Made by a program: the position numbers. 18,943 nucleotides of DNA from a virus (lineage: Duplodnaviria; Heunggongvirae; Uroviricota; Caudoviricetes), in the IMG/VR virus record IMGVR_UViG_2529293214_000009; one strand, given 5' to 3'. Every line of letters begins with the position of its first letter. Positions within the stretch are counted from its first letter, which is position 1. Below, in pieces: positions 15,001-18,000 of the stretch.

Positions 15001-18000
15001 CATCGCTTTCGGGATCACTACCTTGCCACCTGATACCGCAAACGGATAGGCTGTGTTATCCGGATTATTCGGGTCAAAGACAAACAACTGCGACGCAGAA
15101 ATTGCAACCTGACTTACAGGCCTGCCTTCACTGTCTTTTCCGGCGACAATCCCGATCCCCGCAGTGATACCATCAACTCCCGCTTTTTTTGACCACATTG
15201 CAAGAAAAGCTTCACCGCCTTCTTTATCCAATTTAGTGATGCGCTTGTCGACCTCATTAAGCGATTCACTGGTTGACGAATCCAGTGTGCTAATGCGGGT
15301 TTCAATACCACCAATCGTTCTTGTCGTTTCTTCCCTGAGAGTCCCTACAACTTCGGTTGTCTTAATTGCAGCATCCTTTACAGCCTGCCCCTGCGCGTTT
15401 TTTATTTCTTTACGCAGCTCGGACACAACCGGCGACTTTGCAGCCTCATCGCGGATCTGGTCAATGATGGCCTTCACGCCGATCTGTGTTTGTGCCTGAG
15501 TGCCTTTTTCAGCATTCCATGGACCTTTCACTCCTGCCGCGTTAACAAAACGTATCCAGTAAAATCCCGACCAGCCAGGGTCAACCGGATCGCCGTAAAC
15601 CTGCCCCGGCGTCGTGGCAACCAGCACTGCATCAGCAAGGTCATCCTCCGTACCCCGCCAGATTTCAGTCAGTGAATGTCCGCGATAATTAGGCATATCC
15701 CATTCAAGAAGAACCGAGCCAAATCCACCGGTCGCCTTAAAATTCAGCGGTTTTGTGGGAAAATCAACAGTCATTAAAGTACTGTCAATCTCAATACCCG
15801 GATTCAGTGCATATGAGGCACCACCCGATGTTCGACGCCGGGCGAGTTTAAGACCAACCAGTTCCTCACGGGTCACAAATGCGTGACGTCCGTCACCACG
15901 CTGCCCGGTGCCAATTTCCATATTCTCCACAACAGTGGATAAATCCTTCCCCGCACGCCACGGTTTTCTGGTCATACCGGCATCTCCGACATTGATGTAC
16001 TCAGGGTTATTCGTTCCACCTGCCCGAATCCGGATACCATCACCTGCCAGTTTTGCCCGGTTGCTGCCGGAAGTCTCACCACACTTCCCTTAAACGTACC
16101 CGGCGCAAAATGAATCACAGGAACATCATCAGCCATAATGGTGATCCCCACCCGCTCAGGCGCCGGAGATTTCACCCTGATACAGGAAAAAGAGGTTCTT
16201 TCAGGTAATGAAAAAATTTTTGAATGCCACCTTATCGTGGAGGGCAGAGCCCCCCCGGCAAGCACTGACATTTTGTCTCCTGTCACCACGCGCATCATAT
16301 CTTTCGCGAGATCAACCCATGCGCAGTCAAACGGTGTACTGAGATAACGGATATCCATGTTCACCGGACTGAATACAAACACATCCTGCTTACCATCCGG
16401 TTTCGTGTAACAGGCAATGTATTCACCACGCCAGGGATAAGCCACAATGGAGGCCGGATTAAACTGACTCTGCCACTGTTCCGGTGAAACAATCTGTTCC
16501 GTCGCCAGCGCGACATTACCGTTTGCATCAACAGACACCAGGCCATTTGTTCCTGCATACAGCACAAAACCCTCCATCGCAACCATACTCCGCCTGCTCA
16601 GACACGCCTGCATTGAAGGGATTTTGGAACCAGAAATTGTGGACGGTGATACCCCACTGAACAAATAAGGCTCCCCCTTTGTCGCCACCACCAGTGACGT
16701 TCCCAGCGGACAGATAGCTACAATATCTTCTGCCGTCGTGTGACGATTCACTTCCGGCCATGCATACGGCAGATACGCTTCCGAAAACATCACTTCATTA
16801 CCGGCAAACCCGGCGGCAATACCGTTAGCCATCAGGCAAAGGCCTGTCATATTCTCTGGCGGCGGCAGGTAATCCCATGTCGCCAGGGAAGGCCCAAGGT
16901 TTTTCGCCGGTATTTTGTCCGTGTAACTGAGCACGGATGCATCCAGTTCAGCCACAAGTAAAAAATCCGCCTCCCCTCCACCTGATGCAGAGCGATAAAT
17001 CCGGCGACGTTTAATACTGGCATTCTGCAATGGCACCGGAGCCAGCGTCAGTTGTACCGCAGTTCCCGGAGTACGGAGTGTTACCTCCAGAGACGCCGGA
17101 CCTGGCGGACCTTCTTCACCATAATCTGAGACAAAGGTTTCCGTATAAAACCGGGTTTCATCATCATTCGGGTTATCGTCAGAAACATCACCGCCCTGCT
17201 GAACAGTACAGACAGGAGCTGTCGTCGGCGCGGGGATCCCCAGACGATACGATGATGTCGGGTGATTCCCGTCCCCTTTTGTGGCAATAGTCGCATCCGT
17301 CACTTTAGGAAAACGCCCGTCAGTGTAGTAAATACGCCCGTGGGGGTCCTGAGCGATCGGACTGCGGATCACATCCACCACATCCGGCCATGCAAACCAG
17401 AAATCGTCACGGTAATGAAAAATTGTTTTTGGCTTAATTGTGAATGTTTTCTCAACCCCGGATATCTGACGTTCTGGTGTAATAACACCAAACCGGAAAT
17501 GGCAGTCCTCCGCCAGTACAGCGGAATGCTCGGGCAGCATGGATGTCACAACGCGCGGCATCATCCCACGCATCGTGGTGATATCGATATAGGGCATAGA
17601 AATTCCTTTGACTGCTTCAGGCTTAAAAATCAGGGGATTTATGATGGAATTCGCTAAAATCGCGATCGGCATCACTGAAACAAAATGCCTTGCATGACAT
17701 TCTGATGATGACTAAATAACTTCATTGATTATTGCAATTTTCTTTCGGTTTGGGGGAGCATATTGCTCCCCTTTTTTCACTGCATTATCATTGCCGCTGT
17801 AGCAACGAGAAGCATCACTCCGCACACGCAAGATGTTTCACACTCACACCATACAGTCCATTTTTCGCCATTCCCGTATACAGAAAGCTATTCACTGTCT
17901 TCGTGTGAATTCCCATTTCACTGGCAAGGCGACATCATGTACCCCTTTCAATTTTTCCAGATTCAGCTGAATAAAACGGCGTCCCTGATACATACTGCGC

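Follow-up and report, generated by a model that had tools for sequence, protein, structure and literature searches.

An Intrinsic Terminator Facing the Late Operon of an Stx2 Prophage and the Hfq-Bound Plus-Strand RNA That Precedes It

A strong intrinsic (Rho-independent) terminator stands in the late structural region of the Stx2 phage 933W and points against the tail genes, and an Hfq-bound RNA is found on the plus strand immediately upstream of it. We consider it probable that this hairpin is the terminator of a small non-coding RNA gene running against the late operon, and that the product of the gene is made in lysogens, is bound by Hfq, and acts in trans. Most likely, we are dealing with a plentiful small RNA (sRNA) on Hfq that has yet to be named, a further member of the known class of prophage sRNAs in pathogenic E. 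coli. Lysogens of 933W/Sp5 are known to rewire host regulation and virulence through the prophage sRNAs AsxR, AgvB, StxS, and HnrS. Few intergenic transcripts in the published Sakai data are bound by Hfq as heavily as the RNA described here, which nonetheless has no name; cataloguing it would add a further candidate regulator to the toxin phage.

The terminator and its genomic setting

The window, by which we mean the whole 18,943-nucleotide stretch that was analyzed, covers the late structural genes of 933W, known in strain Sakai as prophage Sp5 and serving as the reference Stx2a phage for E. coli O157:H7. The window is reverse-complemented relative to the phage, so that the late genes lie on the minus strand here, whereas they occupy the genome plus strand in NC_002695.1. 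The core and tail of the hairpin (17752-17777, plus strand) read GGGGAGCA-TAT-TGCTCCCC followed by T6 and then CAC. Folded alone, the hairpin reaches -16.1 kcal/mol (z = -4.3 against shuffles). We also searched both strands of the window with a strict definition of at least eight perfect pairs, at least six of them G-C, and a T6 tail; the hairpin is the sole match on either strand, and none of 300 dinucleotide-preserving shuffles yields one. On the minus strand, A6 comes before the stem and CAAACCGAAAG, which offers no U-tract, comes after it; these flanks make the hairpin terminator-like in the plus direction only. The preliminary description had called it a strong plus-strand terminator with a GC-rich 8-bp stem and a T6 tail, and the eight Watson-Crick pairs, the folding energy, and its uniqueness in the window bear this out.

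The placement of the hairpin relative to the genes was also described correctly. It had been said to oppose all surrounding genes, and the nearby annotated genes indeed all lie on the minus strand. It had been placed 155-180 nt upstream of the 541-aa gene, L0124, and this distance holds with the L0124 ATG at 17597, which is the RefSeq start, matches position 1 of phrog_17680, and follows an AAAGGA Shine-Dalgarno sequence 6 nt upstream (≈17603-17608). Finally, the statement that no plus-strand protein gene feeds into the hairpin stands, as no open reading frame with family support reaches it. The ECs1231-like plus-strand reading frames beyond the hairpin have no family match, and ECs1231 has been withdrawn from the current annotation. 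For another plus-strand candidate, ORF-11c (17262-17657), the sole match is a PHROG derived from the over-annotated records of Stx converting phages.

The site is a module boundary, and the cargo between the tail-fiber gene and L0124 differs among relatives, which carry in this slot cor, a Gp38-like gene, or a 156-aa gene together with a 60-aa gene. In the window, the DNA beyond the hairpin contains remnants of minus-strand genes. Directly abutting the hairpin is the stop codon of a gene for a small membrane protein, also on the minus strand; this gene is intact in relatives and is reduced to a 14-codon remnant here. A helix-turn-helix seen by eye at the C terminus of the relatives' 156-aa protein found no support in Pfam or NCBIfam. 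We likewise set aside the phenotype of the ΔORF69 mutant (more plaques and lysogens; Mondal 2016) as evidence on the RNA, since the deletion primers remove only ≈17904-18125 and leave the RNA locus intact.

Table 1. Features at the L0124-proximal junction, in window coordinates
Feature	Position	Strand	Description
L0124 / ECs_1232 / ORF70	15972..17597	-	541 aa; essential for tail formation; phrog_511 'internal virion protein'; its upstream leader lies opposite the RNA
Leader block	17598..17677		80 nt, 96-100% identical in all homologues; minus strand: L0124 leader and ribosome-binding site; plus strand: presumed promoter and 5' part of the RNA
Candidate promoter (weak, predicted)	17616..17645	+	TTCAGG-18 nt-TATGAT; predicted start ≈17652
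Variable RNA body	17678..17751	+	≈75 nt; two alleles, 933W type and second type, ≈51% identical
RNA body segment seen in CLASH reads	17683..17717	+	AAAUGCCUUGCAUGACAUUCUGAUGAUGACUAAAU
U-rich stretch	17733..17751	+	UGCAAUUUUCUUUCGGUUU; just 5' of the terminator; single-stranded in the centroid fold of 17683-17778
Terminator stem-loop	17752..17772	+	GGGGGAGCA-TAT-TGCTCCCCT; 8 Watson-Crick pairs (6 G-C) and 1 G-U pair; 3-nt loop
U-tract	17772..17777	+	T6; predicted 3' end of the RNA, ≈NC_002695.1 1287433, minus strand

Plus-strand RNA in published Hfq and RNase E data

In the Hfq-CRAC data of Tree 2014 (Table S1B), the gap 'ECs1231...ECs1232' holds rank 27 among Hfq-bound intergenic regions. The five experiments yielded 81206, 6030, 70478, 146246, and 3140 'sense' reads and 0 'antisense' reads, and these counts are comparable to or higher than those for MicA in the same table. 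In Table S1B, 'sense' denotes the genome minus strand, opposite the late genes, because spf, ssrA, cyaR, micA, and chiX are listed there as 'antisense' and ryhB and sroC as 'sense'; the assignments of AsxR (-) versus EcOnc27 (+) lead to the same orientation. Two chimeric reads from RNase E-CLASH (Waters 2017; supplementary files 4 and 5 of PMC5286369, the latter being Table EV3) contain the plus-strand segment of the RNA body given in Table 1. These reads, labeled 'ECs1231-1 5UTR', cover NC_002695.1 1287527-1287493 and 1287526-1287503, have MgrR and rRNA as their partners, and are flagged in the table for the overlap of the RNA segment with an Hfq site. Coordinates were converted by subtracting the NC_002695.1 coordinate from 1305210, a mapping that the CLASH read sequences verify, and the two reads start at window positions 17683 and 17684. 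A plus-strand RNA exists immediately upstream of the terminator, and the published CRAC data place it among the RNAs bound by Hfq in vivo. The preliminary description had suggested a possible antisense small RNA opposite the 5' region of the 541-aa gene. The plus-strand RNA is upheld by the one-strand Hfq-CRAC reads and the two CLASH reads, but its documented part does not lie over the ribosome-binding site or the coding sequence of that gene: with the candidate start included, it lies 55-120 nt upstream of the ATG.

The RNA would start somewhere within ≈17650-17683 and end in the U-tract at ≈17775-17778, for a length of ≈95-130 nt. The best σ70 candidate has an 8/12 match, which falls below the scan threshold. 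It sits in the invariant block, is present in most homologues, and is compatible with the start points of the CLASH reads. The canonical Hfq module at the 3' end of sRNAs combines a stretch rich in U with the hairpin of the terminator and a tail of six or more U residues. The RNA carries UUUUCUUUCGGUUU, the hairpin, and U6 in this arrangement, and the same character is kept in the second allele, which is U/C-rich at the corresponding place (CGUCUUUCUUCUGGUC). By analogy with established sRNA 3' modules, we presume that the U-rich stretch, hairpin, and U6 tail together form the Hfq-binding module.

Searches of databases and the literature returned no prior entry for this RNA. Rfam gave 0 matches at the gathering score across the whole window, and an E-value search of 17400-18300 gave only the sub-threshold hits RsaOG (27.5 bits; gathering score 50) and DapZ (22.5 bits; gathering score 56), both of them driven by the terminator. 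No EcOnc entry maps to the hairpin site, the authors of the CRAC study list no sRNA for it, and locus-tag searches of the literature found no paper discussing the RNA. It likely has no EcOnc name because the now-withdrawn ORF ECs1231 adjoined it. The locus illustrates how withdrawn ORF calls can hide sRNAs, the spurious neighboring ORF having probably masked the RNA.

Conservation, proposed action, and alternative readings

The stem is identical in five aligned related E. coli prophages and in ≈35 IMG/VR contigs, with only the middle base of the loop varying between A and G. All homologues have a U-tract of 5-7 T, once broken by a C. The stem is thus invariant and the U-tract is kept although the adjoining 75 nt are so divergent between the two alleles. 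Citrobacter braakii shows the same layout upstream of a 62%-identical L0124 homologue, with an unrelated hairpin and T7 that likewise face against the gene and lie 110 nt from its start codon. In more distant relatives, the terminators at this junction are sense-oriented or bidirectional. RNAalifold detected no conserved structure beyond the terminator; the two alleles fold differently, and 2 of 33 pairs are compensatory, without support. The stem itself displays no covariation because it never varies. As for the leader block, it may owe its conservation simply to belonging to one mosaic block with the strongly conserved 5' end of L0124.

In the mechanism that we propose, the terminator would close a gene for a small non-coding RNA that is read in the direction opposite to the late operon of the Stx2 prophage. 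Its RNA would be made in uninduced lysogens and presumably bind Hfq via the 3' module. Most likely it would act, as other O157:H7 prophage sRNAs do, by base pairing in trans, with the variable body contacting RNAs of the host or of the phage. After induction, the RNA could also pair with the late transcript, to whose L0123-L0124 intergenic part it is perfectly complementary. Three features fit the trans-acting prophage sRNAs already known from this strain better than a pure cis-antisense RNA: the very high occupancy on Hfq in lysogens that have not been induced and thus make no late transcript, the canonical 3' Hfq module, and the one MgrR chimera.

That chimera joins the RNA to a part of MgrR that is also ligated to hdeB in 20 reads. 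The predicted duplex, based on this single chimeric read, has an energy of -15.1 kcal/mol, which 0.5% of shuffles reach (p ≈ 0.005), and its 8-nt core, CUUGCAUG, is not retained in the second allele. Inside 933W, no trans target with complementarity of at least 12 nt was found; only 10- to 11-mers occur, in about the number expected by chance. MgrR represses eptB, which encodes an LPS phosphoethanolamine transferase. One could imagine a two-allele, cassette-like sRNA whose swappable 75-nt specificity body is framed by a 5' block that hardly varies and a terminator that does not vary at all, with the 933W allele sponging MgrR so that Stx2 lysogens would remodel their envelope and perhaps their susceptibility to phage or polymyxin, all within the slot that holds the exclusion gene cor in sister phages. 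We regard this extended scenario as speculative and quite improbable.

Of the other readings, a pure cis-antisense regulator deserves some weight, though we think it unlikely. Here, the RNA would anneal to the polycistronic late mRNA between L0123 and L0124, leading to cleavage by RNase III or RNase E or to altered translation of L0124, and would silence leaky late expression in lysogens or time the synthesis of the tail. Its perfect complementarity to the late transcript, which it has by construction, its position directly upstream of an essential tail gene, and the near invariance of the 80 nt that separate its body from the ATG are in keeping with such a role, and similar terminators close the classic phage antisense RNAs lambda OOP and P22 sar. 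However, the documented segment lies in the intergenic leader, 86-120 nt from the L0124 start codon, and leaves the Shine-Dalgarno sequence and the coding sequence uncovered. Large amounts of the RNA are found on Hfq in cultures that were not induced, in which late transcription stops at tR', whereas cis-antisense pairs usually do without Hfq. Its body is moreover the least conserved part, as expected if no specific cis structure or partner is selected beyond complementarity. The RNA may influence the late transcript in cis, and if it does so, the essential tail genes of the short-tailed Stx phages would have in it the first regulator described for their cluster.

The hairpin might instead be an insulator, stopping stray antisense transcription from entering the cargo between the tail-fiber gene and L0124, a moron region, so called for its extra, non-essential genes; in that case, the RNA found on Hfq would be a stable 3' fragment without a function. 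Such a role would suit a module boundary with varied cargo, the sense or bidirectional terminators of distant relatives at the same junction, and the scan, which found no strong promoter. Hfq-CRAC counts on a par with or above those of MicA, the U-rich Hfq module kept in both alleles, and the recovery of the RNA in RNase E-CLASH hybrids nevertheless render this explanation distinctly doubtful. Still harder to sustain is the idea that the RNA is the mRNA of a very small plus-strand protein, with the hairpin as its terminator. Both alleles keep the ORF in question (17641-17697; MMEFAKIAIGITETKCLA; 18 aa here, 24 aa in the other allele) open, and a Shine-Dalgarno-like AGGGGA stands 3-6 nt upstream of it. 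The allelic proteins are, however, wholly different after codon 12, four of five polymorphic codons in the second allele are non-synonymous, the 18-aa ORF has no family match, and the candidate promoter would start transcription inside it, all of which makes this reading very improbable. We find it barely credible that the hairpin is a minus-strand element, namely a processing site, 3' stabilizer, or terminator of the late/moron transcript. The abutting stop codon of the membrane-protein gene would suit that role, but the hairpin lacks a U-tract in this direction and the published Hfq reads lie on the other strand, with 0 on the late-gene strand. The preliminary description had named this outcome as one that would overturn its proposal, and these data speak against it.

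Relation to known phage small RNAs

The 24B_1 'microRNA-size' RNA, or EcOnc53, comes from the same 933W-like phage family, lies on the same strand, and is likewise antisense to late genes. It occupies a separate locus ≈5 kb away, at 12744-12934 within the window, and according to its authors has no intrinsic terminator and is a 20-nt cleavage product.

The closest context is the EcOnc set (Tree et al. 2014), with HnrS (EcOnc10-12) and StxS, which share with our RNA the same host, the same prophage Sp5, and the same Hfq-CRAC and RNase E-CLASH data sets. Like these sRNAs, the RNA belongs to the late region and is made in lysogens, and it is probably short, with an intrinsic terminator at its predicted end. 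Unlike the EcOnc set, it has no EcOnc number and is known from CRAC and CLASH reads and from sequence. It also differs from these sRNAs in lying upstream of the tail gene L0124 rather than at the PR'/stx moron site, and from the multicopy HnrS in being present in a single copy per phage.

With the anti-sRNAs AgvB and AsxR (EcOnc01-03), the RNA shares an antisense orientation to late genes and a variable part beside a conserved terminator part, and the one chimera linking it to the core-genome sRNA MgrR would fit a sponge-like role of the same type. In contrast to them, it is probably about twice their 51-60 nt, and its variable part is the 75-nt body rather than the 5' 14-18 nt. The ≈42-nt 3' region that AgvB and AsxR have in common is absent from it, as comparison with the AsxR locus and terminator gave only chance 7- to 15-mers located elsewhere.

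Lambda OOP and P22 sar are short transcripts that lie opposite a phage mRNA and end at a strong intrinsic terminator. They are found in regulatory regions and cover part of the ribosome-binding or coding region of the mRNAs that they control, whereas the RNA described here is heavily Hfq-bound and its documented part lies off the ribosome-binding site.

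Location and features of the plus-strand terminator

The 1 kb around the hairpin is 100% identical, in reverse orientation, to phage 933W, VT2-Sakai/prophage Sp5, and numerous further Stx phages with short tails (genus Traversvirus). The entire window corresponds to 933W 39450-58392 and NC_002695.2 1286409-1305351, reverse-complemented, so that the late structural genes lie on its minus strand. A window position x maps to 58393 - x in 933W, to 1305352 - x in NC_002695.2, and to 1305210 - x in NC_002695.1, the version on which the Tree-lab papers rely. The last two differ by 142 nt, an offset taken from stx2 coordinates and confirmed by a published read at 1287527-1287493, which falls exactly on window 17683-17717. 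Outside the RNA locus, segments of 17300-18300 occur at ~10-11 sites per O157 genome and presumably represent the tail-fibre C-terminal module L0122, common to lambdoid prophages.

The preliminary description had placed a strong plus-strand terminator 155-180 nt upstream of the 541-aa gene, which is the tail gene L0124/ECs_1232, and both points are borne out, the distance being correct when measured from ATG 17597. The hairpin has a fold energy of -16.1 kcal/mol and lies within the 294-nt gap between L0123/ECs_1230 (17892-18173, minus strand) and L0124. When both strands of the window were scanned for stems of 8 or more perfect pairs, 6 or more of them G-C, with a T6 tail, it was the sole match on either strand, and 300 dinucleotide shuffles yielded 0. 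The three best-ranked of 30 terminator-like sites in the window (12410-12433, 12561-12584, and 17752-17772) are all antisense to the operon; the top two, on the plus strand, run against the late genes in and beside L0129. A palindromic hairpin (AAAAACCGGAGCC/GGGCTCCGGTTTTT) that separates L0122 from L0123 at 18178-18208, within the Q-antiterminated late operon, has an A-run at one flank and a T-run at the opposite one and is a bidirectional terminator.

RefSeq starts L0124 at ATG 17597, which is preceded at 6 nt by an AAAGGA Shine-Dalgarno and is also where phrog_17680 begins. In older records (933W, Stx2 converting phage I, Mondal 2016) the start is GTG 17675, which lacks a Shine-Dalgarno and gives 567 aa; RefSeq and the PHROG alignments favour the 541-aa form. 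The 26-codon "extension" (17598-17675, minus strand) is a nearly invariant leader.

Features of the locus, with identity to the window in five loci of the second class (~82% identical)
Feature	Coordinates	Strand	Detail
Best sigma-70-like candidate promoter	17616-17645	+	TTCAGG-18-TATGAT; predicted start ~17652
L0124 leader block	17598-17677		96-100% identity
RNA body	17678-17751		~51% identity
Hairpin and U-tract	17752-17777		85-92% identity
Terminator hairpin	17752-17777	+	GGGGGAGCA-TAT-TGCTCCCCT, then T's up to 17777

A plus-strand RNA in lysogenic Sakai

Two published datasets show that a plus-strand RNA is present in lysogenic E. coli O157:H7 Sakai. In the Hfq-CRAC (UV-crosslinking) data of Tree et al. 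2014 (Table S1B), "int_1209, ECs1231...ECs1232" ranks 27 among intergenic regions, with 81206, 6030, 70478, 146246, and 3140 "sense" reads and 0 "antisense" reads. The table's own entries allowed us to decode this label: features on the genome plus strand (spf, ssrA, cyaR, micA, chiX, psp and nar leaders, tufB tRNAs) are all "antisense", whereas minus-strand ryhB, sroC, and oxyS are "sense", and in the stx2B gap abundant AsxR (minus) is "sense" and weak EcOnc27 (plus) "antisense". "Sense" therefore denotes the genome minus strand, opposite the Sp5 late genes, which places the int_1209 reads on the window plus strand. In uninduced cultures, Hfq occupancy of the RNA equals or surpasses MicA's in Table S1B. 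In the RNase E-CLASH data (Waters et al. 2017, PMC5286369), one half of each of two chimeric reads is AAATGCCTTGCATGACATTCTGATGATGACTAAAT or a shorter form, corresponding to plus-strand 17683/17684 to 17707/17717 and labelled "ECs1231-1 5UTR".

Both CLASH reads start at 17683/17684, a position that may mark 5' processing of the RNA or mere RNase trimming. The candidate promoter matches at only 8 of 12 positions and sits in the invariant block; a second candidate, ATGACA-17-TAACTT with a start at ~17729, conflicts with the CLASH reads. If the 3' end falls in the U-tract, the RNA would measure ~95 nt (from 17683) to ~127 nt (from 17652).

ECs1231 is absent from the current RefSeq annotation; its CLASH label indicates that it was a plus-strand ORF just past the hairpin. 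The published EcOnc filter kept peaks >100 nt from any feature, and the removal of StxS2 has been attributed to it. Annotation of ECs1231 nearby, together with this filter, probably kept the Hfq peak from receiving an EcOnc name.

Conservation and neighbouring cargo

Single-copy in each phage, the region occurs in ~350 complete E. coli genomes and 169 phage records; its homologues form two classes, at least 99% and ~82% identical. Segment identities in the table come from five loci of the second class aligned to the window as reference. The leader block runs into the equally conserved L0124 5' end. In the hairpin the loop base is A or G and the U-tract has 5-7 U; the stem never varies and thus offers no covariation evidence. 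An IMG/VR scan for the hairpin returned 41 contigs, ~35 of them the RNA locus, with two body alleles only. Upstream of the terminator, RNAalifold found no structure in common, although each allele folds better than its own shuffles (z = -2.5 and -5.5).

Relatives carry variable cargo between the tail-fibre gene and the leader block, either cor and a Gp38-like gene or genes for 156-aa and 60-aa proteins, so that the RNA borders a moron slot on its fixed side. Comparison with related prophages (as at 1681-2333 of locus L004) shows 17777-18173 to be decayed minus-strand cargo. L0123, which matches phrog_2014, is the truncated N-terminal part of the 156-aa protein, intact in strain G1/2, whose C-terminal 38 residues persist out of frame at 17821-17934. 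The final 14 codons of the 60-aa membrane protein (phrog_9340) persist at 17780-17821, with the stop codon adjoining the hairpin's A-run. Removal of the L0123 fragment (ΔORF69) reportedly raised plaques and lysogens several-fold (PMC5155283).

The Citrobacter braakii homologue of L0124 is 62% identical, and an unrelated hairpin (9 pairs, T7) lies 110 nt upstream of it in the same antisense orientation; Vibrio and Photobacterium relatives instead have sense-oriented terminators at this junction. The C. braakii locus (L009, 2365-2423 and 1905-2324) has back-to-back opposite terminators upstream of the homologue. Next comes a small membrane-protein gene (MKTVILMLTLIPALMMF...) in reverse orientation, with its own terminator, so the junction there bears reverse-oriented cargo.

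Mode of action and relation to known prophage RNAs

We favour, with some reservation, an Hfq-associated sRNA made in lysogens and closed by the hairpin, acting chiefly in trans. This reading draws on the Hfq occupancy, the canonical module (U-rich stretch, hairpin, and U6), the presence among RNase E hybrids, and the fast-evolving body, a trait seen in other prophage sRNAs. In one CLASH chimera the RNA is linked to MgrR, through the MgrR segment ligated to hdeB in 20 reads; the predicted duplex (-15.1 kcal/mol) is matched by 0.5% of shuffles. Given that one read alone shows it and that the second allele lacks the 8-nt core, we treat the pairing as a lead only. Complementarity to the rest of 933W does not exceed chance.

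The preliminary description had proposed an antisense small RNA. Its plus-strand RNA is confirmed, and it is complementary to the late transcript immediately upstream of the essential L0124, but the documented part stops short of the ribosome-binding site; a cis effect on L0124 seems unlikely. An insulating terminator, with the RNA as by-product, is a more doubtful account. From the minus strand, the hairpin presents its A-run 5' and no U-run 3' and is thus directed plus-ward only; a minus-strand element is the least credible reading. The mRNA of a micro-protein is also very improbable. The absence of a plus-strand protein gene feeding the terminator, noted earlier, is upheld: ORFs past the hairpin (17763-18005 and 17833-17970) have no PHROG or Pfam match, and the sole ORF heading into it (17641-17697, 18 codons) is unlikely to be coding, since its two alleles differ wholly past codon 12 and four of five polymorphic codons in the second are non-synonymous.

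The RNA is a real feature, a new unnamed prophage Hfq-binding sRNA of an already known type; we found no paper naming or studying it in the literature searched, and it is not in Rfam. The phage that carries it is the reference Stx2 phage, and public data already exist with which to test it. Lacking similarity to AsxR, it falls outside the AgvB/AsxR family. It is also a separate locus from 24B_1/EcOnc53, in the lom-L0129 gap (12744-12934). That gap is the site of the published phi24B "microRNA-size" RNA 24B_1, whose deletion primers match 12935-12956 (minus) and 12720-12743 (plus); the EcOnc53 Hfq peak (Tree 2014; NC_002695.1 1292386-1292438, minus) maps inside it at ~12772-12824 (plus), and the two reports probably describe one antisense transcript. 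EcOnc36 (NC_002695.1 1301433-1301515, minus; five of five CRAC datasets) maps to ~3695-3777 (plus), antisense within the 2806-aa gene L0134/ECs_1242. In its probable working, the RNA resembles the O157:H7 prophage Hfq-binding sRNAs (the EcOnc set, HnrS, and StxS), which come from the same datasets.
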